Program-made: the position numbers and the translations under genes | DNA from: a virus | Lineage: Duplodnaviria > Heunggongvirae > Uroviricota > Caudoviricetes | Reading direction: 5' to 3' (one strand) | Virus record (IMG/VR): IMGVR_UViG_2687453623_000006 | DNA: 39,437 nucleotides | In this document: in pieces, positions 14,104 to 39,437 of the stretch | Position numbering within the stretch: position 1 is the first letter of the stretch | How the letters are laid out: each line of letters starts with the position of its first letter | Notes under the pieces: model-generated | Databases searched by the model: none | The model's input: the letters and a program-made list of their open reading frames with translations, nothing else | Told to the model about the DNA's origin: nothing

Positions 14104-14131
14104 GTTACGGTCGCTGCCGTGGCGGGTCATT

Positions 14132-15377: not shown

Positions 15378-15379
15378 TT

Positions 15380-19740: not shown

Positions 19741-19742
19741 CA

Positions 19743-21531: not shown

Positions 21532-21545
21532 TTTAAGGAGAGAGC

Positions 21546-22499: not shown

Positions 22500-22508
22500 G
22501 GAGGCGTT

Positions 22509-22847: not shown

Positions 22848-22848
22848 C

Positions 22849-23295
22849 ATGTACTGCACCCTGGAGGATTTGCTTGCGCAGGTGCCGGAGCGGACGCTTA
22901 TCGAGCTCACCAGTGAAGAGATGGACTTCGACTCACCTGCAACAGTGAATACCCGTGTGGTGGACAGCTGTATCCGCTATGCCGACGAGCTGATTGATGC
23001 CCATCTGCGCGGACGCTATATCCTGCCACTGGCAGAGATACCGACTGTTCTGCGGGACATTGCCATCACGCTGGTCCGTTACCGGCTCTACGCCCGCCGC
23101 CCGGAAGGTGACCTCCCGGATACGGTGAAGGATGACCACAAAGAAGCGCTGCGGCAACTCAGGGAGTTACGTGATAACAGGCTCACGCTGGGGCTGCCGT
23201 CCACTCAGAAAGATGTGCCTGAGCCTGGCGAGTTTCGTGTACGCAGTCGCCCGGCTACTTTCGGCGGTCGTGACGGTTTACTGGAGAAATACTGA
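22849..23295 (+). CDS. Mu gp36-like protein (DUF1320)
   Basis: Preferred start ATG 22849 right after the upstream stop (track ORF begins 22579 and overlaps); N-terminus MYCTLEDLLAQVPERTLIELT. Confidence 0.6.
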   Translation: MYCTLEDLLAQVPERTLIELTSEEMDFDSPATVNTRVVDSCIRYADELIDAHLRGRYILPLAEIPTVLRDIAITLVRYRLYARRPEGDLPDTVKDDHKEALRQLRELRDNRLTLGLPSTQKDVPEPGEFRVRSRPATFGGRDGLLEKY

Positions 23296-23759
23296 TGAAC
23301 GTTCTGCCCGTCCTTGATGCGGTACTGGCCCGGTTACGCGAGAAGCTGCCGCAACTGCAGGTGGAGTACTTCCCGGAGAAACCGGCTGAATATCGCCTGA
23401 ACCATCCGGTTGGCGCGTTGCTGTTGAGCTATGCCGGTTCGCGCTTTGACAGGCCGGATGATACCGGTGCGGTGATCCAGTCTCAGACTATCCAGCTCTG
23501 CGTCACGGTGGTCTTCCGCCAGCTCAACGGTAAAAAAGGGGCGATTAATGTCCTGGATGCTGTCCGCCGCATTCTCGGTGGCCACACCCCGCCCGGCTGC
23601 CGCCGCCGTATCTGGCTGACCCGCGAGGTGTTTATCGGTGAAGTCAGGGGGCTGTGGCAGTACGCCCTCGACTTCGCGACTGAAAGCGTCTTTATCGAAG
23701 ACAGCGATTTACCGTCCGGCCCGCTGTTAACCGAAGTGAACTATGAGGAAAGCGAGTGA
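23295..23759 (+). CDS. Mu gp37-like protein (DUF1834)
   Basis: 154 aa; synteny; ATG overlaps upstream stop. Confidence 0.5.
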   Translation: MNVLPVLDAVLARLREKLPQLQVEYFPEKPAEYRLNHPVGALLLSYAGSRFDRPDDTGAVIQSQTIQLCVTVVFRQLNGKKGAINVLDAVRRILGGHTPPGCRRRIWLTREVFIGEVRGLWQYALDFATESVFIEDSDLPSGPLLTEVNYEESE

Positions 23760-24010
23760 TGAAAGAATACCGCTATTCCGGCCCGGCCAGCGGCGTCACG
23801 CTGTCGGACGGAACCGAAATCCTGCTCTGGCCGGGGAAGACGGTTTCCCTGCCGGAGGAGCATGACTACGTGAAGGTACTGGTGGCGCTGAAACATCTGA
23901 CGCCGGTACCTGAAGAGACTAAACCCGCCGGCACACCGGCTGTGCAGTCACCAAAGCGCAGAAGCAGCAGTGACAGCGAAGTGAAAACGGAGGACACCCA
24001 TGGCAGCTAA
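23756..24010 (+). CDS. small hypothetical protein preceding tail sheath (Mu gp38-like)
   Basis: 84 aa; translational coupling on both sides. Confidence 0.4.
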   Translation: MMKEYRYSGPASGVTLSDGTEILLWPGKTVSLPEEHDYVKVLVALKHLTPVPEETKPAGTPAVQSPKRRSSSDSEVKTEDTHGS

Positions 24011-25427
24011 CTATCTGCATGGTCCCGAAACCATTGAGGTGGAAAACGGTGCCCGCCCGGTTAAAACGGTGAAATCTGCCGTTATTGGCCTGATTGGTAC
24101 CGCCCCGATGGGGGATGTCAATACGCTGGTACAGTGCCTGTCTGAGAAAGACGCAGCGGCATTTGGCAGCCAGTTCACCGGCTTTACCATTCCGCAGGCG
24201 CTGGATGCGATTTATGACCATGGTGCAGGCACCGTTCTGGTCATTAACGTCCTCGACCCGGCGAAACATAAAACGGCGATCGAGGATGAGGTGGTTACCT
24301 TTGACAAATCGACAGGGCAGGCCAGACTGGCGCATCCGGTTGTCGCTAATGTGGTGGTGAAAAACAGTGAAGGCAGCACCACCCACACGGCGAACACGGA
24401 CTACCGTGTTGATGCGCAGGCGGGTGTGCTCACGAACCTGGGCAAGGCTATTGAGGCCGGTGGCAGCGTGAAGGTGAGCTATGAGTACGCGGACCCGTCG
24501 AAGGTGACTGCGGCGGACATCATCGGCGGGGTGAACAGCGCCGGAAACCGAACCGGCATGAAGCTGCTTAACGACAGCTTCAACCTGTACGGCTATTTCG
24601 CCAAAATTCTGATTGCGCCGGTGTTCTGCACCCAGAAGAGTGTCGCAGTTGAGCTTATCGCCATGGCAGAGAAGCTGGGCGCGGTAACCTACATTGATGC
24701 GCCTGTCGGTACCACCTTTGCACAGGCTCTGGCAGGTCGTGGCCCGGAAGGCACCATCAACTTCAATACCAGCTCCGACCGCGTCCGTCTGTGCTATCCG
24801 CATGTGAAGGTATATGACCCGGTGACAAACACAGAGCGTCTGGAGCCGCTCAGCCAGCGTGCAGCAGGTCTGCGTGCCAGAGTCGATCTGGACAAGGGCT
24901 ACTGGTGGTCATCCTCCAATCAGGAGATTCTGGGGATCACCGGCGTGGAGCGCCAGCTGTCCGCGATGATTGATGACCCGCAGAGTGAGGTGAACCTGCT
25001 TAACGAACAGGGGATCACCACGGTATTCAGCAGTTACGGCAGCGGCCTTCGTCTGTGGGGTAACCGGACGGCAGCATGGCCAACGGTCACCCATATGCGT
25101 AACTTTGAGAACGTTCGCCGCACCGGTGATGTGATCAACGAGTCCATTCGTTATTTCAGCCAGCAGTACATCGACATGCCGATTACTCAGGCGCTGATTG
25201 ATGCACTGACGGAGTCGGTCAACGCCTACGGTCGCAAAATGACTGGTGATGGTGCGGTACTGGGCTTCCGTTGCTGGTTTGATCCGGCCCGCAATCCGGA
25301 GACGGAGCTGGCCGCCGGGCACCTGTTGCTGAGCTACAAATATACGCCACCACCGCCGCTGGAGCGACTGACGTTTGAGACTGAGATCACCTCGGAATAC
25401 CTGTTAACCCTGAAAGGGGGCAACTGA
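24000..25427 (+). CDS. contractile tail sheath protein (Mu L-like)
   Basis: 475 aa; immediately followed by tail tube gene. Confidence 0.8.
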   Translation: MAANYLHGPETIEVENGARPVKTVKSAVIGLIGTAPMGDVNTLVQCLSEKDAAAFGSQFTGFTIPQALDAIYDHGAGTVLVINVLDPAKHKTAIEDEVVTFDKSTGQARLAHPVVANVVVKNSEGSTTHTANTDYRVDAQAGVLTNLGKAIEAGGSVKVSYEYADPSKVTAADIIGGVNSAGNRTGMKLLNDSFNLYGYFAKILIAPVFCTQKSVAVELIAMAEKLGAVTYIDAPVGTTFAQALAGRGPEGTINFNTSSDRVRLCYPHVKVYDPVTNTERLEPLSQRAAGLRARVDLDKGYWWSSSNQEILGITGVERQLSAMIDDPQSEVNLLNEQGITTVFSSYGSGLRLWGNRTAAWPTVTHMRNFENVRRTGDVINESIRYFSQQYIDMPITQALIDALTESVNAYGRKMTGDGAVLGFRCWFDPARNPETELAAGHLLLSYKYTPPPPLERLTFETEITSEYLLTLKGGN

Positions 25428-25948
25428 TGTCAAAGATTGAGATAAACCGCATCACGAATGCCAACATCTATCTGGATGGTACTAACCTGCTGGGACGGGC
25501 TGAGGAAGTCAAACTCCCCGATGTCTCCATGATTATGCAGGAACACAAGGCGCTGGGGATGGTGGGTAAGGTGGAACTCCCGGCTGGTTTTGACAAGCTG
25601 GAAGGCGAAATCAAATGGAACAGCTTTTACCGCGATGCGATGCTGTCTGCCGCGAACCCGTACAGGTCGCTGGCACTGCAGTGTCGTTCCAGCGTCCAGC
25701 GCTACAGCTCGCAGGGGCTGATTGACGAAATCCCGCTGGTCACCTTCCTGACGATTATGTTCAAGAAGAACCCGCTGGGGACGTTCAAACAGCACGAGAA
25801 CGCCGAGTTCTCCAGTAGCTTCACCTGCACGTATATCAGACAGGTACTGGATGGTGAAGAGCTGCTGCAACTGGACTATCTGGCCAACATCTTCCGGGTC
25901 GGCGGTGTTGATCAACTGACTGACTACCGTATCAATATCGGGGGCTGA
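25427..25948 (+). CDS. tail tube protein (Mu M-like)
   Basis: 173 aa; position after sheath; ATG overlaps sheath stop. Confidence 0.75.
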   Translation: MSKIEINRITNANIYLDGTNLLGRAEEVKLPDVSMIMQEHKALGMVGKVELPAGFDKLEGEIKWNSFYRDAMLSAANPYRSLALQCRSSVQRYSSQGLIDEIPLVTFLTIMFKKNPLGTFKQHENAEFSSSFTCTYIRQVLDGEELLQLDYLANIFRVGGVDQLTDYRINIGG

Positions 25949-25950
25949 CG

Positions 25951-26232
25951 GTGAGTGTTGAACTGACGGATAAAGGAGGACGATGTGCGGCACTGGGCAT
26001 GTCAAATGGTACGTGGTTTACCCTCCTTGATATTCCGGGGGTGGAAACCCTTTTTAATACCCGTAAAACCAATGACCCGATTGACTGCACACGTTCAAAG
26101 GCCCGCAAACTGGCGGATTTGATTGAAGCATGGGAGCCTCCCGACCACTGGTTCTCCGGCATCGGCAAATCTGAGGGAAAGACGCTTCTCATCGCTTTCC
26201 TGCGTAACTGCAAGGGGTTTCGCACTTGCTGA
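25951..26232 (+). CDS. hypothetical protein (93 aa, GTG start) between tube and tail chaperone
   Basis: ORF starting GTG 3 bp after the tube stop; Cys-containing; no recognisable motif. Confidence 0.3.
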   Translation: MSVELTDKGGRCAALGMSNGTWFTLLDIPGVETLFNTRKTNDPIDCTRSKARKLADLIEAWEPPDHWFSGIGKSEGKTLLIAFLRNCKGFRTC

Positions 26233-26329
26233 CATCACAGGGGCTCCGGCCCCTTCTTCTTAATCTCCTTTAATATCCGTCACGCGCTTCTCCCGACATA
26301 CTGCCCTGAACTTACACAGGAGCACAATC

Positions 26330-26665
26330 ATGTCACAGACCCCATCCGATACTTTTAAATTGTCTTATCCCTTCACCACTGCTGCAGGCACCAGAATTGA
26401 GCTGGTTGAACTGAAACGCCTGACGGTAAAAGACCTGAAGCAGGTGCGCAAAATCAGCAAAAACCCGGCAGACTGGGACGAACCGCTGATTGCCCGCAGT
26501 ACTGGTCTTCTCCCGGAAGATCTCGACAATATGGATCTGGCTGATTACCTGCAGTTACAGAAACGATTTCAGCTCATCACGGGGATGGGTGAGAGCAACC
26601 AGGGCGCTGACGCAGGCGCAGGGGCTGCTGGCGAGATGGTTCCGGTTTCAGCCGGGGGAGATTGA
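26330..26665 (+). CDS. tail assembly chaperone (short form)
   Basis: 111 aa acidic protein upstream of the tape measure gene. Confidence 0.55.
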   Translation: MSQTPSDTFKLSYPFTTAAGTRIELVELKRLTVKDLKQVRKISKNPADWDEPLIARSTGLLPEDLDNMDLADYLQLQKRFQLITGMGESNQGADAGAGAAGEMVPVSAGGD

Positions 26666-26747
26666 TGCCCTCGATACTGACGATCTGGAGATGTGGCTGG
26701 AGCAGGCTGAAGAGCAAATCAAAAGCGAGTACGGCGACAAATCATAG
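26490..26747 (+). CDS. tail assembly chaperone C-terminal extension, reached by putative programmed frameshift
   Basis: Overlapping ORF in the +1 frame continues past the chaperone stop at 26665 to 26747; run CCGGGGGAGAUUGA at the junction. Confidence 0.4.
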   Translation: MPAVLVFSRKISTIWIWLITCSYRNDFSSSRGWVRATRALTQAQGLLARWFRFQPGEIDALDTDDLEMWLEQAEEQIKSEYGDKS

Positions 26748-26822
26748 TACAGACAGCCGCCAGTAGCGGCTGTTCTGCGTTATCCCCTCACGTCTTTTCA
26801 CCTTCCCCGGAGGTTAACCACT

Positions 26823-29800
26823 ATGTCGGGACAGTTTTCAGTCGGCGTTGTTATCGGCGGGATGATTGGCAGCACATTCCGTTCTGCAATGAGCGGTACC
26901 CGCCGTGCGCTTGATTCCCTGAGCGATACCTCACGCCGCCTGCAGGAACGTCAGAACGCTTTAACCCGTGCAACAGAACGTTATGGTCAACTGGGTTCTT
27001 CCCGGATGCAGCATCTCAACAGCGAGCTGCTGCGGGTAAGCCGCACCATGGAGCAAATTGAGCGCCAGCAGCGCCGTCTGTCAGCGGCATCCGCTACCAG
27101 TGATGCGCTGAAAGCTAACCGCATGGCGCTGTATGGTCAGGGGATTGAAGCGTATGGCATGGCACAGACTGTTTATCATACGGTTTCCCCTGCCGTTCAG
27201 CAGTCCATGTCTTTTCAGGACAAAATGATTGATATGTCGATCACCGCAAAATATGACAATAAAACGCGGGATGCACTTGCCGGACAGATAAAAGGCTGGG
27301 CGCTTAAATACAATCAGTATCAGGATGAGCTGCAGGAGGCGGTGGGTTCACTCATCAGCGACAATATTGATAATGTGTCAGATATCGGTTTTCTGATGCC
27401 GGATATTGCCCGCGCGGCAACGGCAACACGCACGTCTGCTCAGGACTGGGCAAAAGTGGCCGCAGTCTGGCAAAACTCCCTGAAAGGTGCGGCCAGAGAT
27501 TTTGGTGCCGTTCAGAATATTATGGCTTATGCCGGTGACCAGGGGTCATTTGAAATCCCGGATCAGGTCAAGTGGATGCAGTCCCTGGCCCCAATGATGG
27601 CGGGTCTTGCCAGTGGAAAAGAGGCTGTTGCTGAAATCGGGGCCAGTCTCCAGATAGCAAAAATCGGTGCAGGTTCCACCGACGAAGCAGCCAATAATTT
27701 TAAAAACTTTCTTACCAAAATTTTTGCCCGCGATACTCAGAAACAGTTTGCTGATCTGGGTATTGATTTGCAGGGATCTATTGCGAGTTATAAAGCTGCG
27801 GGGATCTCTCCGATTGAAGGGATGTTGAGTGTTATAGAACGTTACCTCAATGCCAAAAGCCCCGAAGCGCTGGCCGGCTTCAAATCAGCCATGAAAATAA
27901 AGAATGATACGGCAAGAGATGAGGCACTTCAGGCTCTGGCGAAAAACTTTGGTCTGGGCGATATGTTCGCGGATATGCAGGTCATGGCATTTATCCGCCC
28001 GATGCTGGCCAACATGGACAGATATCGAGAGATCCGTGCCGGTGCTCTCAGGGCTGCGGATAACGATTTGCTTGCCAGTGCTTATGATCAGCGGCTGAAA
28101 TCTCCCCTTGAAGCCACTAAAACACTTATGGTCAGCAGTCGCGATCTGGCAATTACGCTGGGCGATCAATTAGCTCCATCTTTTATTTCTCTGACTCAGG
28201 AACTGCTCCCACTCATTCAGGGGACAAAACACTGGGTAGCGACTCACCCGCAATTTGTCAGTGGGGCTTTTAAGCTCATCAGTGCGCTCCTTGCGATTAA
28301 GATAGCGACTGTTGGTCTCAAACTGGGGCTGAATCTCCTTATTTCCCCCTTTGTGAACGTCTGGAAAACTACTGTTTTACTCCGGACCAACTGGCATCGA
28401 CTGACTACCGCACTCGGAGAAGGTGGCAAATTACGCTGGCTTGTCACTGGATTCAGCCGACTGACCAGCGGAGGACTGAAACTCAGCAAAGTTCTGGCGG
28501 GCAGCCTCGTTCGCGGTTTTATGAGCGCTGCACGTGCCGTTCTCTGGATTGGGCGAGCGCTGATGATGAATCCCATCGGTCTCGTTATCACCGCTGTCGC
28601 GACAGCAGCTTACCTTATCTACCGCAACTGGGGGGCTGTCAGTGGTTGGTTTAAACAGCGCTGGGCTGACATTCAGGAAGCCTTTAACGGCGGCATTGTG
28701 GGAATTGGTAAGTTGCTGATTAACTGGTCGCCGGCAGGCCTGCTCTATAAAGCCTTTGCGGCTGCGCTGAAATATTTCGGCGTTGCTCTGCCGGCAAAGT
28801 TCACCGACTTCGGTGGCCATCTTATCGACGGTCTGATTAACGGTATCAAAAGCAAATGGGGGTCGCTCAAATCCAGTGTAACCGGAATGGGTGACAGCAT
28901 CAGTAGCTGGTTTAAACAGCGCTGGGCTGACATTCAGGAAGCCTTTAACGGCGGCATTGTGGGAATTGGTAAGTTGCTGATTAACTGGTCGCCGGCAGGC
29001 CTGCTCTATAAAGCCTTTGCGGCTGCGCTGAAATATTTCGGCGTTGCTCTGCCGGCAAAGTTCACCGACTTCGGTGGCCATCTTATCGACGGTCTGATTA
29101 ACGGTATCAAAAACAAATGGGGGTCGCTCAAATCCAGTGTAACCGGAATGGGTGACAGCATCAGTAGCTGGTTTAAACAGTGCTGGGCTGACATTCAGGA
29201 AGCCTTTAACGGCGGTATCGCGGGAACTGGTAAGCTGCTGATTAACTGGTCGCCGGCAGGTCTGCTCTATAAAGCCTTTGCAGCTGCGCTGAAATATCTT
29301 GGTGTTGATCTGCCGGCAAAGTTCACCGACTTCGGTGGCCATCTTGTCGACGGTCTGATTAACGGTATCAAAAACAAATGGGAGTCGCTCAAATCCAGTG
29401 TAACCGGAATGGGTGACAGCATCAGTGGCTGGTTCAGCGAAAAGCTGGGCATTCATTCGCCGAGCCGCGTGTTTATGGGCTTTGGTGACAATATCGCGCA
29501 GGGGGCCGCCATTGGCCTGCAGCGGACCACTCCGCTTGCAGCTCTGGCCGGGCAGCGAATGGCCAGTGAACTGCTCCCCAGAATGCCCGTGAGCATTCAG
29601 GGGCCAGAAATACGGGATAACACTTCAGGTGTTCGCTTCAGTATGCCGTTGCCCGATATCAATGGGTTTATGTCGTCTGCTAAAAATGCGATCGGAGCCG
29701 TAATCAATAGTTTGTCTTCCATGCCCGTTATTCCGCTCTCCACCCGGGCATCGATTTTACCAGGGCAACGTCTGGCAAATGAGATGACACCGGATGTTCC

Positions 29801-30035
29801 CCGTATCCCCTCGCCTGAAATCCTGGCTGCCGGATATTCAGGCCGTGGTGCAGCTGCAACCGGCGGTGGAACGTCTGGTGGTATCCAGGTCAGCTTTAAT
29901 CCTCAGTTTTTCCTCAATGGCAGGGAAACCACAGCGCCTGCAGGACTGACTGGTGCCCTGAATATGAGTCTGCATGAGCTGGAAAAAATGCTGGAGCGTC
30001 TGCTGGCTCAGAAACAACGTAAGGAGTACCGCTGA
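26823..30035 (+). CDS. tail tape measure protein
   Basis: 1070 aa, largest ORF, located between chaperone and baseplate genes; contains internal tandem repeats. Confidence 0.8.
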   Translation: MSGQFSVGVVIGGMIGSTFRSAMSGTRRALDSLSDTSRRLQERQNALTRATERYGQLGSSRMQHLNSELLRVSRTMEQIERQQRRLSAASATSDALKANRMALYGQGIEAYGMAQTVYHTVSPAVQQSMSFQDKMIDMSITAKYDNKTRDALAGQIKGWALKYNQYQDELQEAVGSLISDNIDNVSDIGFLMPDIARAATATRTSAQDWAKVAAVWQNSLKGAARDFGAVQNIMAYAGDQGSFEIPDQVKWMQSLAPMMAGLASGKEAVAEIGASLQIAKIGAGSTDEAANNFKNFLTKIFARDTQKQFADLGIDLQGSIASYKAAGISPIEGMLSVIERYLNAKSPEALAGFKSAMKIKNDTARDEALQALAKNFGLGDMFADMQVMAFIRPMLANMDRYREIRAGALRAADNDLLASAYDQRLKSPLEATKTLMVSSRDLAITLGDQLAPSFISLTQELLPLIQGTKHWVATHPQFVSGAFKLISALLAIKIATVGLKLGLNLLISPFVNVWKTTVLLRTNWHRLTTALGEGGKLRWLVTGFSRLTSGGLKLSKVLAGSLVRGFMSAARAVLWIGRALMMNPIGLVITAVATAAYLIYRNWGAVSGWFKQRWADIQEAFNGGIVGIGKLLINWSPAGLLYKAFAAALKYFGVALPAKFTDFGGHLIDGLINGIKSKWGSLKSSVTGMGDSISSWFKQRWADIQEAFNGGIVGIGKLLINWSPAGLLYKAFAAALKYFGVALPAKFTDFGGHLIDGLINGIKNKWGSLKSSVTGMGDSISSWFKQCWADIQEAFNGGIAGTGKLLINWSPAGLLYKAFAAALKYLGVDLPAKFTDFGGHLVDGLINGIKNKWESLKSSVTGMGDSISGWFSEKLGIHSPSRVFMGFGDNIAQGAAIGLQRTTPLAALAGQRMASELLPRMPVSIQGPEIRDNTSGVRFSMPLPDINGFMSSAKNAIGAVINSLSSMPVIPLSTRASILPGQRLANEMTPDVPRIPSPEILAAGYSGRGAAATGGGTSGGIQVSFNPQFFLNGRETTAPAGLTGALNMSLHELEKMLERLLAQKQRKEYR
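28647..29429 (+). repeat. three in-frame tandem copies of a 261-bp (87-aa) unit inside the tape measure gene
   Basis: Unit beginning TGGTTTAAACAGCGCTGGGCTGACATTCAGGAAGCC recurs at 28647, 28908 and 29169; encodes SWFKQRWADIQEAFNGG...MGDSIS three times; partial fourth copy diverges at 29430. Confidence 0.85.
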
Positions 30036-30919
30036 TGTTTGCCGTACTGGGTGATATTGAGTTTGAGCTGATTACCTACTGGGACGGCTTCGAGGCCACG
30101 TTCGGCGTCGATTATGCGGAGCATGCCCGCATCGGGGGTAAGCCTGGCCTGCAGTTCGTCGGCGACAGGCTGGACGAAATCCAGATAACTCTGGTTTTCC
30201 ATCAGCATTATTGTGTACCCGATGTGGAGCTGGCGAGACTGCGAACAGCCATGAAAGCCCATCAGGCACTGGCGCTGGTCTTCGGCAACGGTGACTATCG
30301 CGGCTGGTTCGTGATTACCGATGTGACTGCAACCAGCGAGCAGACTGACAGTACCGGCAACGTGCTGGCTGTCAGTGCCACCGTGTCTCTCCGGGAATAC
30401 ACCGGTGACCCGAAAAATCCTCTGCAACCACCGGCAATACGCACGAAGCTCCCGGGTGTCGGGGCGGTCTCCGGTGCCATTCCTTCACCTTCCGGGGTGG
30501 CGCAGTTCATCCGCAACGGCGTCAACTATGCGAAACAGGCGCAGTCTGTACTCCAGACCACTATCAGCGCCGTTCGGGTGACACAGAAAATGAAGGATAA
30601 CCCCGTTGTCGCACTGACCCGTGTGCCGGGGCTGATGAGCGGACTGGGTAATATCTCCGGGGCTCTGGGGAAAAGTGTTCCGGCGTTTAACGCACTCTCT
30701 GAATCCATGCCCGATGCCATCAGTCTGGCCAGAACAGCCAGCGAAGCAGCCACGTATGTACAGCAGGCACAGTCTGCGCTGAGTGGTGTGGACAAAAGAA
30801 ATATTGCAGGTGCTCTGGATACCGTTTCCGGGCAGCTTAACGCCGTCGGAACAGCATTCAACCGCATGTCTCCGGGATTAAGTGCAATGGCCGCCAGAAT
30901 ACTGACGAGGAGTGTGTGA
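30035..30919 (+). CDS. tail protein, P2 gpU-like N-terminal domain (Mu N position)
   Basis: N-terminus MFAVLGDIEFELITYWDGF...GKPGLQFVGD...ITL resembles gpU-family tail proteins; ATG overlaps tape measure stop. Confidence 0.55.
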   Translation: MFAVLGDIEFELITYWDGFEATFGVDYAEHARIGGKPGLQFVGDRLDEIQITLVFHQHYCVPDVELARLRTAMKAHQALALVFGNGDYRGWFVITDVTATSEQTDSTGNVLAVSATVSLREYTGDPKNPLQPPAIRTKLPGVGAVSGAIPSPSGVAQFIRNGVNYAKQAQSVLQTTISAVRVTQKMKDNPVVALTRVPGLMSGLGNISGALGKSVPAFNALSESMPDAISLARTASEAATYVQQAQSALSGVDKRNIAGALDTVSGQLNAVGTAFNRMSPGLSAMAARILTRSV

Positions 30920-31131
30920 TGTTTCTTGAACATGTTACCCGTGACGGAGAGCGCTGGGATTCGCTGGCATGGCAGTACTACGGTGACCCGCTGGGCTATC
31001 CCCGGATTATTGCCGCCAATCCGCACGTGGCCATCACGCCGGTGCTGCCCTCCGGGCTGTTGTTACTGATCCCGGTGATTGAGGCTGAAGAAGCCCGTAC
31101 AGAAGAGGATATTGCCCCATGGCTGAGATAA
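30916..31131 (+). CDS. tail protein X-like (P2 gpX family)
   Basis: 71 aa; motif RWDSLAWQYYGD typical of gpX. Confidence 0.6.
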   Translation: MMFLEHVTRDGERWDSLAWQYYGDPLGYPRIIAANPHVAITPVLPSGLLLLIPVIEAEEARTEEDIAPWLR

Positions 31132-32291
31132 ACAGCACTGCGCAAGTCACATCAGCGTTAACCGGCGTCAGCGATGTGCTGACACCGGTGTTCACTCTGT
31201 GGTATCTGCAGAAAAACATCACCTCTGATATCGCGCCTTATGTCACCCGTGTGACCTGGAGCGATAACATCAAAAATGAGTCCGATACCATTGAGGTGGA
31301 GCTGGACGACACCGATGGCCGCTGGCTGGATAAGTGGTATCCGGGCAAGGGTGACACGCTGACGCTGAAAATGGGCTATCAGGACGAGAAGCTGCTGTCC
31401 TGCGGTACGTTCTCTATAGACGAGATCGAAGTGAGTTCGCCCGCTTCCGTTGTTTCTATCCGTGGGGTGGCCACCTCGGTTAACAGTGCCCTGCGGACTA
31501 AAACCAGTCGTGGTTTTGAGAACACCACGCTGGCAGCTGTTGCGGGGCGGATTGCCAGAAAGCACCGGCTGAAACTGGTGGGCAGCATTGAGTCCATCAG
31601 AATCGACCGGGTGACCCAGTATGCTGAAACCGACGTGGGTTTTCTGCGCCGGCTGGCCAGCGAGTATGGTTATGCAGTGAAAGTGGTCAGTGACCAGCTG
31701 ATTTTTTCTCATCTGGCCACACTGCGCAGTCAGGAGCCGGTCAGGCAGTTAAAACCGCAGGATGTGGCCCGCTTTTCCCTGCGTGACACCATCAACCGGG
31801 TCTATAAATCTGCAAAGGTAAAACACCAGAAAAGCAGCAGTAAAAAACTGATCGTCTACGAAGCTGATGGTGGTACCCGTGAAAGCGACAAAAAGCTCAA
31901 AGGTGGTAAGGTTACCAGCGCTGACTCACTTAAAGTTAACAGCCGCGTCAGCGACCCGGACAGTGCCCGGATTAAAGCGGATTCAGCACTGGCCAGACAT
32001 AACGAATACCAGCAGAACGGCTCCCTGACGCTGACGGGAACACCTCAACTGACAGCAGGCAACAAAATTGAACTGGTGGGTTTTGGGCAGTTATCCGGGC
32101 CATGGCTCATAACCACTGCCCGCCATGCGTTTGACCGTAACAGCGGCTACACCACAGAGCTGGAAGTGGCACGGGGGCCGATCACACAGGGCAAGGCGAA
32201 GAAAGGTAAAAAAATCGGCAAAACCCGGATGCTGACCATCTATAAACCGGACGGCAGCACGTCCACAGTAATAAGAGAGAAGAAAAAATGA
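31119..32291 (+). CDS. baseplate hub / late control D-like protein (P2 gpD, Mu P position)
   Basis: 390 aa; synteny between gpX-like and gpV-like genes. Confidence 0.7.
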   Translation: MAEINSTAQVTSALTGVSDVLTPVFTLWYLQKNITSDIAPYVTRVTWSDNIKNESDTIEVELDDTDGRWLDKWYPGKGDTLTLKMGYQDEKLLSCGTFSIDEIEVSSPASVVSIRGVATSVNSALRTKTSRGFENTTLAAVAGRIARKHRLKLVGSIESIRIDRVTQYAETDVGFLRRLASEYGYAVKVVSDQLIFSHLATLRSQEPVRQLKPQDVARFSLRDTINRVYKSAKVKHQKSSSKKLIVYEADGGTRESDKKLKGGKVTSADSLKVNSRVSDPDSARIKADSALARHNEYQQNGSLTLTGTPQLTAGNKIELVGFGQLSGPWLITTARHAFDRNSGYTTELEVARGPITQGKAKKGKKIGKTRMLTIYKPDGSTSTVIREKKK

Positions 32292-32884
32292 CTGGTGTCA
32301 CTCGTCAGGTCGGTACGGTCAGTGCCGTTGATGCCGACAGGGTTCAGGCCCGCGTTCGTCTGCCTGAATGCGATAACCTGCGCACAAACTGGCTTAACGT
32401 GCTGCAGCGCAATACCCAGGATAACAAAGATTACTGGCTCCCTGACGTGGGGGAGCAGGTTGAGGTGCTGCTCGATGCCAACGGCGAGGATGGTGTTATT
32501 CTGGGCGCGGTGTATTCAGACGTCGATAAACCACCGTTCAGTGACAAAAATATCCGGGGAACCCGGTTTGCTGATGGTGCAGAGTACAGCTACAACCGGA
32601 AGACGCACACTCTGATCATCCGGGGCGGCATTGAGCATATTGTCATTGAGTGTGGTGCTGATGTGGTATTGAAAACACAGAAAGCCACGATTGACGCACC
32701 GGAAACCGAACTTACCGGAGATCTGCGTGTCAGGGGTAAGCTGATTTACGAAGGAGGCATGGCGGGTTCTGGTGGTGAAGGTGTTACCGCGACCATCCAT
32801 GGCAATATCGAGATTAAAGGGAATGCCCATGCCACGGGCAGTATGTTGTCTGATGGCGAAAACTCCAGCCACCACTCCCACTGA
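32288..32884 (+). CDS. baseplate spike protein (P2 gpV-like)
   Basis: 198 aa; Gly-rich beta-helix-like C-terminal region ending in His-rich tip NSSHHSH. Confidence 0.7.
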   Translation: MTGVTRQVGTVSAVDADRVQARVRLPECDNLRTNWLNVLQRNTQDNKDYWLPDVGEQVEVLLDANGEDGVILGAVYSDVDKPPFSDKNIRGTRFADGAEYSYNRKTHTLIIRGGIEHIVIECGADVVLKTQKATIDAPETELTGDLRVRGKLIYEGGMAGSGGEGVTATIHGNIEIKGNAHATGSMLSDGENSSHHSH

Positions 32885-32938
32885 GCTTTTTAAACGCCTT
32901 TAATATCAGCGTTCCCGCACGGGGGCAATACTGCCCCC

Positions 32939-33286
32939 ATGAAAACAACCTCAGTATTCTGGCAACCGACCCTGCAGGCTCCCGGCGAAATTGTCCGGGG
33001 GCTGGATGATATCCGGCAGGCGATTCAAATTATCCTGCGGACTCCCCGCGGCAGCGACCCGCATCGCCCGGAGTTCGGCAGCAATCTGCATCTTTATATC
33101 GACTGGCCTGTAGACCGGGCCATTCCGCATGTGGTGCGCGAATCCGTCGATGCCATCCGACGCTGGGAGCCCCGCTGCCAGCTTATGTCAGTTAAACCCG
33201 CCGTCGACGGCGAACATCTTACGCTCCGGGTGAGCTGGAAAGGCTCAGACGGACAGACCCGGACTCAGGAGTTGCTATGGCGCTGA
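32939..33286 (+). CDS. baseplate wedge protein (GPW/gp25-like)
   Basis: 115 aa; motif RGSDPHRPEFGSNLHLYID characteristic of GPW/gp25. Confidence 0.7.
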   Translation: MKTTSVFWQPTLQAPGEIVRGLDDIRQAIQIILRTPRGSDPHRPEFGSNLHLYIDWPVDRAIPHVVRESVDAIRRWEPRCQLMSVKPAVDGEHLTLRVSWKGSDGQTRTQELLWR

Positions 33287-34380
33287 CAGAACCCGATTTT
33301 ATTGAACGCGATGCCGACAAAATCACGGCAGAAATGATTGCGAAGTATGAAGCGGATACCGGCAAAACGCTGTACCCGGCACAGGCAGAACGTCTGCTGA
33401 TTGATCTGTGGGCCTATCGCGAAATGCTGGTCAGGGTTGCGGTACAGGAGGCAGCAAAGCAGAATCTGGTCGCCTTTTCACGAGAGCCGATGATTGATTA
33501 CCTCGGAGAACTGGTTGGTGTATACCGCCTTGCCGCGCAGCCTGCCACCACCACACTTCAGTTCTCTGTGGATGAGGCACTGACCATTGATGTGCTGATC
33601 CCGGCAGGCACCCGCGTCAGCGCTTCCGACAGCGTTATTTTTGCCACCGATACAGATGTGGTACTGAAGGCCGGATTGCTGCTGGTCAATGTCACGTCCA
33701 CCTGTACCGAACCCGGTACCGCTGGTAACGGCTGGCAACCTGCGCAGGTCAGTCAGTTACTCGATGAGATTGATAACGTCGACCTGCTGGTGAGCAATCT
33801 GACGGCCAGTTCCGGCGGTTCAGAACAGGAAGACGATGACAGGCTCCGGGAGCGTATCAGGCTGGCCCCGGAGTCATTCACCAATGCCGGAAGCCGTGGC
33901 GCATACCGCTTTCATGCCATGCAGGCCCATCCCAACATTGTCGATGTTGCTGTGCTTTCCCCGGTTCCCGGGACCGTAGATCTGTATCCGCTGCTCAGTA
34001 CCGGTCTGCCGGACGGCGGTGTTCTCACGCTGGTAGAGAGTTTCTGCTCTGATGAGAAAGTCAGGCCACTCACTGATACAGTGCGGGCTAAAACACCAGT
34101 GAAGGTGGATTACACCATTGAAGCCAGGATTACGATCTATCGTGATCAGGATGCCAGGTCTGTAAAAGATGCCGCTAACAGCGCCATACAGAACTGGGTG
34201 GCATCACGTGCCGCCACGCTGGGGCGTGATATTGTCCCCAGCCAGATTATCAGTGCATTGTCCGTTTCCGGGGTGTACCAGGTTGAACTGGTGACACCGG
34301 CACTGAGGGTGGTGGCAGAAAACGAATGGGCAAACTGTACGGCGATCACACTTAACATGAGTGGAGTGTCTGATGACTGA
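33277..34380 (+). CDS. baseplate J-like protein
   Basis: 367 aa; synteny after W-like gene. Confidence 0.75.
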   Translation: MALTEPDFIERDADKITAEMIAKYEADTGKTLYPAQAERLLIDLWAYREMLVRVAVQEAAKQNLVAFSREPMIDYLGELVGVYRLAAQPATTTLQFSVDEALTIDVLIPAGTRVSASDSVIFATDTDVVLKAGLLLVNVTSTCTEPGTAGNGWQPAQVSQLLDEIDNVDLLVSNLTASSGGSEQEDDDRLRERIRLAPESFTNAGSRGAYRFHAMQAHPNIVDVAVLSPVPGTVDLYPLLSTGLPDGGVLTLVESFCSDEKVRPLTDTVRAKTPVKVDYTIEARITIYRDQDARSVKDAANSAIQNWVASRAATLGRDIVPSQIISALSVSGVYQVELVTPALRVVAENEWANCTAITLNMSGVSDD

Positions 34381-34951
34381 GCCATTACAACTCCCGCCAC
34401 CGCTTGAGGGTGATATCAGTCTCAGGACGCTGGGAAGACTGGCAGGGCGGCTGGATAACATCGACCTGAGCGTACTGATGGTCTTTCTCGTCGATATCGT
34501 CGACAGTTCTGCGCTGCCATGGCTGGGCGAGCAGTTCTCACTGTCTGGCGATGGCTGGGAGCTGGCGGAATCGGACGATGTTCGCCGCATGCTTATAAAA
34601 GCAGCCATCGAACTACACCGGTATAAAGGGACGCCGTGGTCAATCCGGGAAGTTATCCGCCGTTTTGGCTTTGGTGAAGTGGATCTGATTGAAGGCACAG
34701 GTCGTCTCAGTTACGACGGCAATCGCAGCTATAACGGACTGTTTGTTCATGGAGATGCAGCCGCCTGGGCGGTTTATCGCGTTATTCTGAAACAGCCCAT
34801 TACTAACGATCAGGCCGCGATGCTGCGTCAGACGCTCGCTGCATTTGCACCGGCCCGCTGCCATCTGGCCAGCCTGGAGTATCAGTCTGTGGCCATTCGC
34901 TATAACAATACCGCCATCCATGATGGCAGTTATAACCACGGGAGCAGTTGA
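34373..34951 (+). CDS. tail protein I-like (P2 gpI family)
   Basis: Track ORF from GTG 34361; preferred ATG 34373 overlapping the J stop; precedes tail fibre. Confidence 0.6.
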   Translation: MTEPLQLPPPLEGDISLRTLGRLAGRLDNIDLSVLMVFLVDIVDSSALPWLGEQFSLSGDGWELAESDDVRRMLIKAAIELHRYKGTPWSIREVIRRFGFGEVDLIEGTGRLSYDGNRSYNGLFVHGDAAAWAVYRVILKQPITNDQAAMLRQTLAAFAPARCHLASLEYQSVAIRYNNTAIHDGSYNHGSS

Positions 34952-37146
34952 TTATGGGAAACCTGAATGAAACAGAAAAGTGGGAAGAAAAAATCTATCA
35001 ACTGGAGACATCAGATCCGGTTCTGGGTGGTGCTGACGGGATATCAAATCGAGCCCCCCGGCAACTGGCAAACAGGACGAAATGGCTGAAGAAAAAAACG
35101 GAGGAAGCCGCACAGTCACTGGCTGAACACGTACGTTCCCGTAACCACCCGGACGCGACACTGACAGCTAAGGGGTTCACCCAACTGAGCAGTGCCACCA
35201 ACAGCACCTCTGAAACGCTGGCCGCCACACCAAAAGCCGTCAAGGCTGCATACGACCTTGCAGCCGGCAAGGCACCCGTCAGTCACACTCACCCGTGGAG
35301 TCAGATAACGGGAGTGCCTGCTGCCTCGCTGACGGCAAAAGGCACCGTACAGCTGAGCAGTGCCACGGACAGTCAATCAGAAACTGAGGCTGCCACGCCG
35401 AAGGCTGTGAAAATCGCGTATGATCTGGCCCGGGGAAAATACACAGCCCAGGATGCAACAACGACCCGTAAAGGGATCGTACAACTGAGCAGTGCCACCA
35501 ACAGCACCTCTGAAACGCTGGCCGCCACACCAAAGGCCGTCAAGGCTGCATATGACCTAGCTGCCGGCAAGGCCCCCGTCAGCCACACTCACCCGTGGAG
35601 TCAGATAACGGGAGTGCCTGCTGCCTCGCTGACGGCAAAAGGCACCGTACAACTGAGCAGCGCCACGGACAGTCAATCAGAAACTGAGGCTGCCACGCCG
35701 AAGGCTGTGAAAATCGCGTATGATCTGGCCCGGGGAAAATACACAGCCCAGGATGCAACAACGACCCGTAAAGGGATCGTACAACTGAGCAGTGCCACCA
35801 ACAGCACCTCTGAAACGCTGGCCGCCACACCAAAGGCCGTCAAGGCTGCATATGACCTGGCTGCCGGCAAGGCCCCCGTCAGCCACACTCACCCGTGGAG
35901 TCAGATAACGGGAGTGCCTGCTGCCTCGCTGACGGCAAAAGGCACCGTACAACTGAGCAGCGCCACGGACAGTCAATCAGAAACTGAGGCTGCCACGCCG
36001 AAGGCTGTGAAAATCGCGTATGATCTGGCCCGGGGAAAATACACAGCCCAGGATGCAACAACGACCCGTAAAGGGATCGTACAACTGAGCAGTGCCACCA
36101 ACAGCACCTCTGAAACGCTGGCCGCCACACCAAAGGCCGTCAAGGCTGCATATGACCTGGCTGCCGGCAAGGCCCCCGTCAGCCACACTCACCCGTGGAG
36201 TCAGATAACGGGAGTGCCTGCTGCCTCGCTGACGGCAAAAGGCACCGTACAACTGAGCAGCGCCACGGACAGTCAATCAGAAACTGAGGCTGCCACGCCG
36301 AAGGCGGTCAAGGCTGCATACGACCTTGCAGCCGGCAAGGCCCCCGTCAGCCACACTCACCCGTGGAGTCAGATAACGGGAGTGCCTGCTGCCTCGCTGA
36401 CGGCAAAAGGCACCATACAATTGAGCAGTGCCATCAACAGCACGTCTGAAATACTGGCCGCCACACCGAAAGCGGTCAAGGCTGCATACGATCTGGCAAA
36501 CGGAAAACAACCGGCAGATGCCACGCTCACTGCTCTGGCAGGACTTGCCACTGCAGCAGATCGGTTGCCTTATTTTACCGGAGCAGACCGCGCAGCGCTG
36601 GCAACCCTTACAGCTATTGGTCGCGCTATTATCGCTAAGGGCAGTATAAAAGATGTCCTCAATTACCTTGGTTTGGGGGAAGGCTCTGCATTGCCTGTTG
36701 GTGTGCCTGTTCCGTGGCCCACCGCCACACCGCCAGCAGGCTGGTTACAGTGCAACGGAGCTACGTTCACCAAAGAACAATATCCTGTTCTGGCCAGAGT
36801 CTACCCGACCCTCCGTCTTCCCGATTTACGCGGTGAGTTTATCCGTGGATGGGACGACGGGCGCAAGATTGACGAGGGGCGTAAGTTGCTTTCATGGCAG
36901 AAAGGTACACTGGTCGGCGGTCATGACGATAACGATTCTTCGCTGGATATCTCGTACATGAGTAACGGAAATAATATTGACTATGGCGGCGATAAGGTGT
37001 TTGCGGGGAATTACCGTAGCGATTATTTGTGGTACGCAATTCTGGGTGGAACAAACAGTCGCGCAAAAGCCGAATTAAACGGAGCATTCTTTAACATAAC
37101 CCGCCCCCGCAATATCGCGTTTAACTATATCGTGAGGGCGGCGTGA
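34948..37146 (+). CDS. tail fibre protein (constant N-terminus, repeat-rich shaft, exchangeable C-terminal cassette)
   Basis: 732 aa; repeated LSSAT(N/D)S(T/Q)SET(L/E)AATPKAVK(A/I)AYDLA motifs; C-terminal region homologous to two inverted downstream cassettes. Confidence 0.8.
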   Translation: MIMGNLNETEKWEEKIYQLETSDPVLGGADGISNRAPRQLANRTKWLKKKTEEAAQSLAEHVRSRNHPDATLTAKGFTQLSSATNSTSETLAATPKAVKAAYDLAAGKAPVSHTHPWSQITGVPAASLTAKGTVQLSSATDSQSETEAATPKAVKIAYDLARGKYTAQDATTTRKGIVQLSSATNSTSETLAATPKAVKAAYDLAAGKAPVSHTHPWSQITGVPAASLTAKGTVQLSSATDSQSETEAATPKAVKIAYDLARGKYTAQDATTTRKGIVQLSSATNSTSETLAATPKAVKAAYDLAAGKAPVSHTHPWSQITGVPAASLTAKGTVQLSSATDSQSETEAATPKAVKIAYDLARGKYTAQDATTTRKGIVQLSSATNSTSETLAATPKAVKAAYDLAAGKAPVSHTHPWSQITGVPAASLTAKGTVQLSSATDSQSETEAATPKAVKAAYDLAAGKAPVSHTHPWSQITGVPAASLTAKGTIQLSSAINSTSEILAATPKAVKAAYDLANGKQPADATLTALAGLATAADRLPYFTGADRAALATLTAIGRAIIAKGSIKDVLNYLGLGEGSALPVGVPVPWPTATPPAGWLQCNGATFTKEQYPVLARVYPTLRLPDLRGEFIRGWDDGRKIDEGRKLLSWQKGTLVGGHDDNDSSLDISYMSNGNNIDYGGDKVFAGNYRSDYLWYAILGGTNSRAKAELNGAFFNITRPRNIAFNYIVRAA
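35150..36520 (+). repeat. in-frame tandem array of near-identical 300-bp (100-aa) units in the tail-fibre shaft, about 4.5 copies
   Basis: CTGAGCAGTGCCACCAACAGCACCTCTGAAACGCTGGCC recurs at 35185, 35485, 35785 and 36085; identical antisense ORFs in the track at 300-bp offsets. Confidence 0.85.
36661..36867 (+). repeat. inversion-site homology block A inside the tail-fibre gene (gix-like crossover site at its 5' edge)
   Basis: About 200 bp nearly identical in inverted orientation to 38086..38290 and 38599..38811; 5' edge ACCTTGGTTTGGGGG resembles the Gin/Hin crossover core (AAACC-NN-GGTTT). Confidence 0.7.
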
Positions 37147-37152: not shown

Positions 37153-37767
37153 TCAGCTGGCAAGTGCCAGTGGCGCTTCCGGCCAGCTGATTTCAGGTGC
37201 CGTGCTGATATCCAGTGCGTTCAGCTCGTCGATATAATCCAGCACGGCGTTCAGTTTTGCCGTTTCTTCTGGTGTCAGACTGCGACCAGCACGCAGTTTG
37301 AGGTTGATAAGATCGACGGACGCCATCGCCTGTTTCACCCGTTGCTGGCGTTGCTGTCTGGCAACCTCCAGTTCTGCGGCTCGCTGCCGTTCAGTATCGG
37401 TTACCCACGCCTCACCGTTCCAGGTATCCCATGGCGTGGCCGGCTGTTTTGTGGTGGTGTCCGCCGGGTAATCACCCGGTTGGGTAATCAGAACGGGGTT
37501 ACCGTTCTCCGTGCTGTATACCGTCTCGCCGCGGTGATCAGGCACATGCTCCCACCCGTTCAGCGTGGCAGTCCGGCAAACCACGTAACCCGAAATTGCC
37601 TCCGGCGGTGCATCGGCGCACGAATGTGCCGGAGTACCCACCCCAAGGGCGAGATACTCCACAGAGGATGAGGTGTATTCCCGGGTTTCCTCGTCATAGT
37701 GATATACAGTGATCTCGCCCGCTACAGTGGCGATACCGTTTTCATCCAGAACTGCAGTGTTACTCAT
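37153..37767 (-). CDS. tail fibre assembly chaperone (Mu U-like), in currently silent orientation
   Basis: 204 aa; directly downstream of the minus-strand cassette at 37767..38249 with overlapping stop/start. Confidence 0.7.
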   Translation of the reverse strand: MSNTAVLDENGIATVAGEITVYHYDEETREYTSSSVEYLALGVGTPAHSCADAPPEAISGYVVCRTATLNGWEHVPDHRGETVYSTENGNPVLITQPGDYPADTTTKQPATPWDTWNGEAWVTDTERQRAAELEVARQQRQQRVKQAMASVDLINLKLRAGRSLTPEETAKLNAVLDYIDELNALDISTAPEISWPEAPLALAS

Positions 37768-38249
37768 TAAACTGCCCTCACAATGTAATTAAGTGCAATG
37801 CTACGGGGTCTGACAGTGATACCCTTCGCATACCCGCTTCTGATAGAGGTCAGAATAGTAGCCTGCATACCATTGTCTGACATTGCCACGACAGGATCGC
37901 TGAATGTTGTCCCGTCCGGCATTTTAAAGCTGCCCTCACGAAGGTCTGTAATGGAATCTTCATTGTTGAATCCCATGCCGACTATCCCCGAGGTTCCCGT
38001 AGTGTCCTGGTTATAATAATCCAGCATTGCTGTTCTTAACAGCGTTGCCCCTTGTGCGGACAGCAACTTACGTCCTGTATCAACTTTGCGCCCGTCGTCC
38101 CATCCACGGATAAACTCACCGCGTAAATCGGGAAGACGGAGGGTCGGGTAGACTCTGGCCAGAACAGGATATTGTTCTTTTGTAAAGGCGCGCCCGTCGC
38201 ACTTTAACCAGCCTGCTGGCGGTGTGGCGGTGGGAAACGGAACAGGCAC
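37767..38249 (-). CDS. alternative tail-fibre C-terminal cassette B (currently unfused)
   Basis: N-terminal 60 aa PVPFPTATPPAGWLKCDGRAFTKEQYPVLARVYPTLRLPDLRGEFIRGWDDGRKVD nearly identical to the C-terminal region of the expressed fibre, then diverges. Confidence 0.7.
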   Translation of the reverse strand: MPVPFPTATPPAGWLKCDGRAFTKEQYPVLARVYPTLRLPDLRGEFIRGWDDGRKVDTGRKLLSAQGATLLRTAMLDYYNQDTTGTSGIVGMGFNNEDSITDLREGSFKMPDGTTFSDPVVAMSDNGMQATILTSIRSGYAKGITVRPRSIALNYIVRAV

Positions 38250-38290
38250 ACCAACGGGTAGCGCCGAGCCTTCTCCTAAACCAACGTTTT
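38086..38290 (-). repeat. inversion-site homology block B
   Basis: Inverted copy of block A; gix-like core AAAACGTTGGTTTAGG on the minus strand at about 38262..38290. Confidence 0.65.
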
Positions 38291-38793
38291 TATGCGGCCC
38301 TTACGATGTAATTAAACGCAACATTGCGGGGGCGCATTGATATCCATGCCCCGGTAAAATTATCCTCCGCTGTCCTTTGAATACCCGTTATAGAGTTATC
38401 TGCTGATGCAGGAACATAATCGCTATTATTTCCTGCTTTAGGATTAGCTGGGTTTCCAACGGTTATAACAGAATCAGCAGTAGCAAAAGCGATACCTACT
38501 TTGACATTAGTATTCAGATCGTAACCGTAATAATCCTGCAAAGCTGTACGAATAAATGTTGCAGCCTGACCACTTAGCAATGAACGCCCCGTATCAACTT
38601 TGCGCCCGTCGTCCCATCCACGGATAAACTCACCGCGCAAATCGGGAAGACGGAGGGTCGGGTAGACTCTGGCCAGAACAGGATATTGTTCTTTTGTAAA
38701 GGCGCGCCCGTCGCACTTTAACCAGCCTGCTGGCGGTGTGGCGGTGGGCCATGGAACAGGCACACCAACAGGCAGTGCAGAGCCTTCCCCCAA
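38290..38793 (-). CDS. alternative tail-fibre C-terminal cassette C (currently unfused)
   Basis: N-terminus GEGSALPVGVPVPWPTATPPAGWLKCDGRAFTKEQYPVLARVYPTLRLPDLRGEFIRGWDDGRKVD matches the expressed fibre, then a distinct C-terminal domain. Confidence 0.7.
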   Translation of the reverse strand: MGEGSALPVGVPVPWPTATPPAGWLKCDGRAFTKEQYPVLARVYPTLRLPDLRGEFIRGWDDGRKVDTGRSLLSGQAATFIRTALQDYYGYDLNTNVKVGIAFATADSVITVGNPANPKAGNNSDYVPASADNSITGIQRTAEDNFTGAWISMRPRNVAFNYIVRAA

Positions 38794-38811
38794 ACCAACG
38801 TTTATCTCTCA
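38599..38811 (-). repeat. inversion-site homology block C
   Basis: Inverted copy of block A; gix-like core GATAAACGTTGGTTTGGGGG on the minus strand at about 38786..38811. Confidence 0.65.
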
Positions 38812-38864: not shown

Positions 38865-39437
38865 ATGCTGATTGGCTACATACGTGTGTCAACAAATGAC
38901 CAAAACACAGATTTGCAACGCAATGCATTAATGTGCGCAGGATGTGAACAGATTTTTGAGGACAAAATGAGCGGAACCAAGTCGGAACGACCAGGCCTGA
39001 AACGCGCTTTAAAGTGCCTTAAAAGAGGGGATACATTGGTGGTCTGGAAGCTGGATCGGTTGGGTAGAAGAATGAAACACCTCATTGCTCTCACAGAAGA
39101 GCTACGCGCAAAAGGTGTCAATTTTCGCAGTCTGACGGATTCAATCGATACCAGCACTCCGATGGGAAGGTTCTTTTTTCATATGATGGGTGCACTGGCA
39201 GAAATGGAGCGTGAACTGATAGTTGAGCGCACGCTGGCAGGACTGGCTGCTGCGCGAGCACAAGGAAGAGTTGGAGGACGTCGCCCGAAACTGACGAAGG
39301 AGCAGCATGAGCAGATCGCAAGATTGCTCCAGAAAGGGTATGACAGAAAGCGGCTGGCAATTATCTATGATATTGGACTGTCAACGATCTACCGCTACCA
39401 CCCTGTTGGGACTGTCATAACGCAACCTGAAATGTAA
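38865..39437 (+). CDS. gin: Gin/Hin/Cin-family serine DNA invertase
   Basis: 190 aa from ATG 38865 (AAGGGAG RBS); MLIGYIRVSTNDQNTDLQRNAL with catalytic Ser, C-terminal HTH; near-identical in pattern to Mu Gin as recalled; adjacent to inverted-repeat-flanked fibre cassettes. Confidence 0.85.
   Translation: MLIGYIRVSTNDQNTDLQRNALMCAGCEQIFEDKMSGTKSERPGLKRALKCLKRGDTLVVWKLDRLGRRMKHLIALTEELRAKGVNFRSLTDSIDTSTPMGRFFFHMMGALAEMERELIVERTLAGLAAARAQGRVGGRRPKLTKEQHEQIARLLQKGYDRKRLAIIYDIGLSTIYRYHPVGTVITQPEM

Follow-up and report, generated by a model that had tools for sequence, protein, structure and literature searches.

This locus raises the question of whether a near-perfect tandem repeat inside a phage tail-fibre gene is a true and length-variable part of that gene or a product of sequence assembly and, if it is real, by what route it may have arisen and what its variation may mean for the phage. 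The stretch analysed here (the window) is the whole 39,437-nt IMG/VR record IMGVR_UViG_2687453623_000006, most of which is a Mu-like prophage, and the gene in question is a tail-fibre gene of the P2 gpH / Mu S type at 34954..37146 on the plus strand. It encodes 730 amino acids (aa) from an ATG, which is also where RefSeq relatives start; a TTG at 34948 is given as an alternative start in the open reading frame (ORF) listing. We consider it highly probable that the shaft-coding part of this gene contains a genuine in-frame variable-number tandem repeat (VNTR), that the window's allele was formed by a very recent duplication of an inner unit, and that the number of copies is variable.

The repeat itself is readily defined. 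Tandem Repeats Finder places it at 35182..36305 (plus strand), between the unique N-terminal part and the receptor-binding end of the gene, with a period of 300 nt (100 aa), 3.7 copies, 98% matches, no indels and a score of 2185, and the successive units start in frame at 35185, 35485, 35785 and 36085. A search for 300-nt repeats recovered copies at 35148, 35448, 35748 and 36048 (86%) and an out-of-register copy at 36216 (77%). Head-to-tail units of high identity, whose length is a multiple of three, are what an in-frame VNTR consists of, and the near-perfect 300-bp repeat that the initial annotation had described in the fibre gene is thus confirmed. Within the protein, the motif LSSAxxSxSExxAATPKAVKxAYD occurs nine times (at aa 80, 136, 180, 236, 280, 336, 380, 436 and 492) with spacings of 56, 44, 56, 44, 56, 44, 56 and 56 aa, and Pfam family PF03406, Phage_fiber_2 (Pf2), is matched in nine stretches with 547.3 bits (cut-off 22; E = 9.4e-169). 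Each 300-nt unit is composed of one 56-aa module, made of a Pf2 core and the linker GKAPVSHTHPW, and one 44-aa module, made of a Pf2 core and a short linker. The near-perfect array is followed by two diverged terminal modules (36253..36552, plus strand), namely a 56-aa hybrid with a B-type head and an A-type tail and the last Pf2 module. These last approximately 1.5 half-units are 70-82% identical to the other modules, are found in every allele examined, the 3-module allele included, and together with the array yield the 168-nt period that Tandem Repeats Finder reports as an overlapping second array (36070..36498, 2.6 copies, 85% matches). The figure of about 4.5 near-identical copies given initially therefore holds if the nine motifs are halved, but it is too high for the near-perfect copies, which number only 3.7.

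The differences between the copies indicate how young the array is. Compared in register, units 1 and 2 differ at eight positions, units 2 and 3 at one, and unit 3 and the partial unit 4 at none of 219 nt, and all differences between copies within the near-perfect array are synonymous. Since the A-type and B-type cores share no more than about 62% DNA identity, the near-identity between units is not a constraint imposed by the motif, and the suggestion that the amplification was very recent is well borne out. The repeat also accounts for a series of minus-strand ORFs in 35279..36510 that recur every 300 nt (84 aa at 35279, 35579 and 35879; 71 aa at 35373, 35673 and 35973; 99 aa at 35677 and 35977). 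None of these has a Pfam match even at E<=1 and all lie wholly inside the verified fibre coding sequence, and for these reasons we regard them, as the initial annotation did, as by-products of the repeat and not as genes.

Comparison among isolates had been proposed as a check on the array, and it shows that copy number differs between near-identical prophages. For this purpose each distinct module sequence was given a number and the arrays were then read directly. The nine modules of the window read 01-02-03-04-05-04-05-06-07, which in module order is the seven-module allele of strain KK19-02 (01-02-03-04-05-12-07) with one extra 04-05 unit. EC11 carries five modules (01-02-05-06-07), MS20675 seven (01-02-05-04-05-12-07), DETEC-S566 likewise seven (01-02-05-17-18-12-07, with a 336-nt unit), elppa9 nine (01-02-01-02-01-02-05-12-07) and a contig of GCA_964046675 eleven (01-02-05-04-03-04-05-04-05-12-07). 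The EC11 prophage is particularly telling: it follows window 864..35705 with 11 mismatches in 34,842 nt (approximately 99.97% identity) and then skips exactly 600 nt, that is, two units. The 24.9 kb upstream of the fibre gene match at 99.5-100% in the 40 best-ranked Escherichia coli genomes, whose arrays have 5, 7 or 9 modules. Arrays of 5, 7, 9 and 11 modules thus occur in prophages whose flanks are practically 100% like those of the window where compared, the 11-module allele (L012) having been compared only over the first 237 nt of the fibre gene and in its shared module variants. The identity of 94.6% reported for MS20675 is an alignment artefact induced by the repeats.

The composition of these alleles is as informative as their length. 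The same module variants recur across alleles in differing orders and numbers, and elppa9 reached its nine modules by amplifying another unit than the window did; the different composition of the two nine-module alleles implies that equal length arose at least twice, independently. A lineage represented by LH50-c (88% identical) shows three near-identical 300-nt units of its own, another lineage carries 56-aa modules, six in all, in a 336-nt register, and other alleles show either 336-nt or 168-nt registers. When 5,426 complete genomes were searched, the spans of the 60 best matches indicated nine modules in one (elppa9), eight in one, seven in 34, six in five and five in 19. The region is covered in 523 genomes, and of a sample drawn evenly from these, about two thirds have a 3-module allele; many of the latter belong to sequence type 131 (ST131), such that these counts are non-independent. 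The window accordingly represents a rare long allele. Taken together, the 600-nt gap in EC11, the relatives with five, seven and nine modules and the independent expansion in elppa9 support the proposal that shaft length can be changed by recombination. We also entertained the idea that the 3-module allele is an absorbing state; it was rejected, given that alleles with 336-nt units (L009) show that re-expansion in another register can occur.

All fibre ORFs that we examined reach the conserved C-terminus, with the exception of that of PhiKM (L001), a partial genome record in which the ORF ends at 321 aa. In ST131-type relatives, RefSeq marks the 3-module fibre genes as incomplete fragments (L007 3753..4886 and L008 3753..4835). 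Direct translation of both genes from the conserved start runs for 445 and 428 aa, respectively, to the normal C-terminus, and the fragment calls look like an annotation artefact caused by the difference in length and not like real decay.

Could the assembler nevertheless have over-expanded or miscounted the array, the true copy number being lower? With units 3 and 4 identical and unit 2 a single nucleotide apart, short reads cannot anchor the inner copies; moreover, the source genome is absent from the complete-genome collection, and only the one complete genome mentioned above, out of the 60 best matches, has an array of the same length. However, short-read assemblers usually collapse repeats and do not expand them, and the module order of the window is that of KK19-02 plus one inner unit. 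In addition, the exact 730-aa product exists as an NCBI protein on a 5.07-Mb contig (P0053, WP_077872211.1), public proteins of this fibre type have 3 to 11 modules, and the 11-module allele sits on a 2.4-Mb contig. The first 598 residues, which make up the nine-module N-terminal part, recur in three assemblies with three different C-termini, so that two assemblies besides that of P0053 contain them joined to other ends. The differing copy numbers across many complete genomes and the recurrence of the nine-module part in three assemblies weaken the artefact explanation to the point where we would give it only a small chance, and a pure assembly artefact, as a class, is unlikely. Another alternative is that these are old repeats kept alike by selection on the protein, with neither recent amplification nor a variable copy number. 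The purely synonymous differences between copies do indicate that purifying selection acts on the module sequence, and the 56/44 pattern is common to the 88%-identical lineage and to the fibres of large, P1-size phage-plasmids. Protein-level selection would, however, leave synonymous differences in place, yet the inner copies have none or one; furthermore, copy number differs between prophages that are 99.97% identical elsewhere, and different units have been amplified in different strains. The inter-copy counts, the EC11 alignment and the module maps already contradict this explanation, and we see hardly any chance for it.

It is also conceivable that most of the remodelling of the array came about by ectopic gene conversion, with other fibre genes in the same cell as donors, be they P2-like, lambdoid or P1-like. 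In genomes with a match the median number of matching places is 3-5, the 100-aa period recurs at 67-83% identity in fibres encoded on P1-size plasmid contigs, and P2 gpH is among the sequences with about 74% nucleotide identity to a unit. Some alleles also hold module variants not found in the window's lineage, such as 17-18 in DETEC-S566. Nonetheless, the units gained by the window, KK19-02, MS20675, elppa9 and the 11-module allele exactly duplicate modules of their own arrays, as exchange within the array predicts, and the foreign copies (74-83%) are too diverged to give identical units, which makes gene conversion a very improbable main route. The explanation best supported by the sequences is that identical in-frame units underwent misaligned homologous exchange or replication slippage, because the added units copy their neighbours exactly, changes come in whole-unit steps and in several registers, and change outpaces point substitution. 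According to this model, neighbouring units, whose identity reaches 100% across stretches of hundreds of bases, would pair out of alignment, and either RecA-dependent unequal sister-strand recombination or replication slippage would then add or delete whole units with the reading frame kept. Exchange in the 168-nt or 336-nt registers would give rise to further alleles, and the nine-module allele of the window would be the outcome of a very recent event of this kind at an inner unit.

Several points weigh against the model of a genuine, variable array as put forward here, or against particular parts of it. The copy number of the window itself is provisional, 2.7 or 4.7 being conceivable in place of 3.7, the identity of units 3 and 4 over their shared 219 nt is precisely the situation in which assemblers miscount, and some of the genomes filed as complete may themselves contain unresolved repeats. 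The BLAST span used for the survey is an imperfect proxy for copy number; it misjudged two alleles with 336-nt units (L009 and L011), which were read directly. Recombination and slippage are indistinguishable from sequence, the molecular route thus being one that we infer, and the same applies to any change in fibre length and to effects on assembly, adsorption or host range. An AlphaFold2 monomer model of fibre aa 70-300 (two units), built on an alignment of 15 sequences, reached a mean predicted local distance difference test (pLDDT) score of 32.3 and a predicted template modelling (pTM) score of 0.15, values too low for a monomer model of a presumably trimeric fibre to be informative. Finally, neither a PDB sequence search nor the literature yielded a solved structure shown to resolve the Phage_fiber_2 repeat.

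What a change in copy number would do to the fibre can be approached from the order of its parts. The unique N-terminal part (34954..35184, plus strand; identity at period 300 of 20-25%, hence no repeat) lies directly 3' of the genes for Baseplate_J (33277..34380) and Tail_P2_I (34361..34951), both assigned by Pfam, and is presumably the end that attaches to the baseplate, by analogy with Mu, in which the N-terminus of the fibre docks onto a wedge protein (PMC11915804). At the opposite end, a Collar domain (aa 585-632, Pfam E = 5.6e-15) is found and the C-terminal part resembles the tip of T4 gp37 (2xgf, E = 1.8e-13 in a PDB sequence search). The gene order of J, I, fibre and chaperone and the Collar-bearing, receptor-binding C-terminus place the protein in the P2 gpH / Mu S class. 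The array would accordingly encode the shaft between the attachment end and the tip, and each unit would add 100 residues per chain of a presumed trimer. That the shaft would become physically longer by these 100 residues per unit is suggested by the domain order and by the general principle that repeats allow fibres to adjust their length (PMC6116203).

As for the structure of the modules, the PDB sequence search matched only Mu S, in a single motif, and relatives of the C-terminal tip. A 2021 paper listed Phage_fiber_2 among the repeat families without a known structure, and the Mu cryo-electron microscopy paper makes no statement on whether the motif region is modelled. The linker GKAPVSHTHPWSQITGVPAASLTAKG that follows the Pf2 core in the 56-aa module is a weak match to the Pfam family PTR. 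An H-T-H sequence (SHTHPW) occurs within this weakly PTR-like segment at window 35290..35310 and at the equivalent position in every 56-aa module. We take it to resemble the HxH sites that bind iron along the axis of the T4 gp37 and R-pyocin shafts (see also PMC6116203); if it were such a metal site, each added unit would also add one site.

The tip that this shaft would carry is itself switchable. A 26-bp invertase crossover site marks the junction between the constant and variable parts of the fibre gene (36656..36681, plus strand) and overlaps a 226-nt inverted repeat (36665..36890). It is identical at 24 of 26 positions to the EC958 Phi2 site TCCTCAATTACCTTGGTTTAGGAGAA (PMC4134206). The core TTGGTTTRGGRGAAGG defines three crossover sites, one on the plus and two on the minus strand, with none expected by chance, and the inverted partner cores (38269..38284 and 38783..38798) lie within inverted repeats of 226-229 nt. 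Downstream of the junction, the currently expressed variable C-terminal cassette 1, comprising the Collar domain and the tip (36682..37146, plus strand), is followed by a tail-fibre assembly (chaperone) gene (37153..37767, minus strand; Caudo_TAP, E = 3.5e-28), two silent C-terminal cassettes, each with its crossover site (cassette 2 at 37767..38296 and cassette 3 at 38290..38810, both on the minus strand), and a gene for a serine DNA invertase of the Gin/Cin/Pin family (38865..39437, plus strand; Resolvase, E = 1.2e-50; HTH_7, E = 1.7e-12), at whose position relatives annotate a 190-aa recombinase. The crossover sites thus bracket two silent Collar cassettes and the single chaperone gene beside the invertase. 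A shared N-terminal part is followed by cassette 1 in the window and protein P0053, by cassette 2 in elppa9, AR_0085, protein P0052 and others, and by cassette 3 in DETEC-S566 and protein P0054, and the chaperone gene, inverted relative to the fibre gene in the window, stands on the fibre strand in elppa9 after inversion. An adjacent serine recombinase, inverted sites at the junction and at the silent cassettes, and the occurrence of both orientations characterize a Gin/Cin/Pin/Min-type switch, by which the tip at the end of the shaft is exchanged among three cassettes. There are, then, three C-terminal cassettes for one chaperone gene, and in the window the latter lies on the strand opposite to the expressed fibre gene.

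The setting of the locus is that of an integrated element. The first 863-873 nt or so of the window belong to the core chromosome of E. coli (ybaQ/higA antitoxin, a RelE/ParE-type toxin gene and ybaP); the left approximately 870 nt are 100% identical to many strains, the left end of the prophage lies near 864, and the remainder is a transposable E. coli prophage that is Mu-like but has a baseplate of the P2 type. Pfam identifies an rve (DDE) transposase, an AAA_22 ATPase, Portal_Mu, a sheath and a tape measure, and relatives are annotated with Mor, Gam and gp16/GemA-like genes; the baseplate genes (gpJ, gpI) and the fibre gene are annotated as P2-type, and around the fibre Pfam gives the order Baseplate_J, Tail_P2_I, fibre, Caudo_TAP, invertase. 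Relatives at many different insertion sites are to be expected of a transposable phage, and they are indeed found at cheW/tar, yqhA, aroA, srlE and within another prophage, the window's own site being ybaP/ybaQ; a junction query (window 1-1500) found no prophage at that site in the complete-genome collection. The DDE transposase and ATPase, the Mu-type portal and the varied insertion sites together assign the element to the Mu-like transposable phages, and its nearest phage record is Escherichia phage PhiKM, filed under Bcepmuvirus. The prophage also encodes a D12-class N6-adenine DNA methyltransferase (10589..11353, minus strand; Pfam E = 5.9e-29).

The closest described system is prophage Phi2 of the E. 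coli ST131 strain EC958, in which a stable 5' part with tandem Phage_fiber_2 repeats is joined to an invertible Collar-encoding 3' part (PMC4134206, Forde et al. 2014). The Pf2 repeats, the invertible Collar part, the downstream chaperone gene and the DNA invertase all correspond to those of the window, as does the near-identical crossover site, situated in an inverted repeat of about 227 nt. Related prophages are present in ST131 genomes; the ST131-type relatives examined have, however, only three modules and two tape-measure repeats, whereas the window has nine modules and three C-terminal cassettes, and the EC958 paper treats the inversion without repeat copy-number variation (PMC4134206). 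Phage Mu, with its S/S' fibres (gp49/gp51-52), G segment and Gin, is likewise a transposable myophage with a constant N-terminus and an invertase-switched C-terminus with chaperone, and residues 103-149 of Mu S align to one module (E about 2e-7). Nevertheless, alignment finds a single Pf2 motif in S as against nine in the window's fibre, each of the two Mu cassettes has its own chaperone as opposed to one chaperone gene for three cassettes here, and the window's baseplate and fibre genes are annotated as P2-type.

More distantly, P2 gpH shares the Pf2 motif (a unit matches at 73.6% nucleotide identity), and fibres of P1-type phage-plasmids, on contigs of approximately 92-102 kb, show the same 100-aa periodicity for up to six or seven steps; both differ from the window's fibre in having other N-terminal domains and repeats that are 67-83% identical to its own. 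Fibres of up to 964 aa with this unit are encoded on several P1-size phage-plasmid contigs (P0001, P0004, P0006, P0011 and others), and their sequences suggest that the double module may be shared by, and expandable in, that family as well. In its head-to-tail, near-identical units with a length that is a multiple of three, and in a copy number that varies among close relatives, the array resembles the VNTRs of elongated phage and bacterial surface proteins; unlike those, its units are large (300 nt), which makes homologous recombination no less plausible than slippage.

A second in-frame tandem repeat (28639..29434; period 261 nt or 87 aa, 3.0 copies, 96%) lies in the tape-measure gene (26823..30035, plus strand). 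This gene is 261 nt shorter in several related prophages (among them CP196262, CP107128 and CP103742) and in the ST131-type lineage, and strain S7 combines two tape-measure repeats with a short five-module fibre. Tape-measure length sets tail length; the length of the tape measure, and hence of the tail, may therefore also be variable. Co-variation between the tape-measure and fibre repeat numbers is only suggestive and is confounded by clonality.

The kind of feature described here, the architecture of Pf2 repeats with an invertible Collar part and the exact protein in databases are already known, and variation in length is to be expected of repetitive fibre genes. A documented allelic series with independent, recurrent expansions on a near-constant phage background may be new; we found no paper describing copy-number polymorphism of this array, the literature yielding only the architecture (PMC4134206) and a general statement on fibre repeats (PMC6116203). 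In practical terms, short-read assemblies will collapse or miscount the locus, it yields spurious antisense ORFs and some of its intact short alleles are flagged as partial by RefSeq, all of which calls for repeat-aware annotation and long reads.

For the biology of these phages, the natural series of 3 to 11 modules in several registers on a near-constant background makes it testable whether shaft length, independently of the tip, affects adsorption or host range in E. coli with different surface layers. We would go further only tentatively and consider it on balance unlikely, if worth bearing in mind, that the array is a selected contingency locus, that is, a fast and reversible dial for fibre length acting in concert with the three-cassette invertase switch and perhaps also with the equally polymorphic 261-nt tape-measure repeat. 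Were this so, a single prophage lineage could match fibre reach, tail length and receptor choice to the differing thickness of O-antigen or capsule on its hosts.

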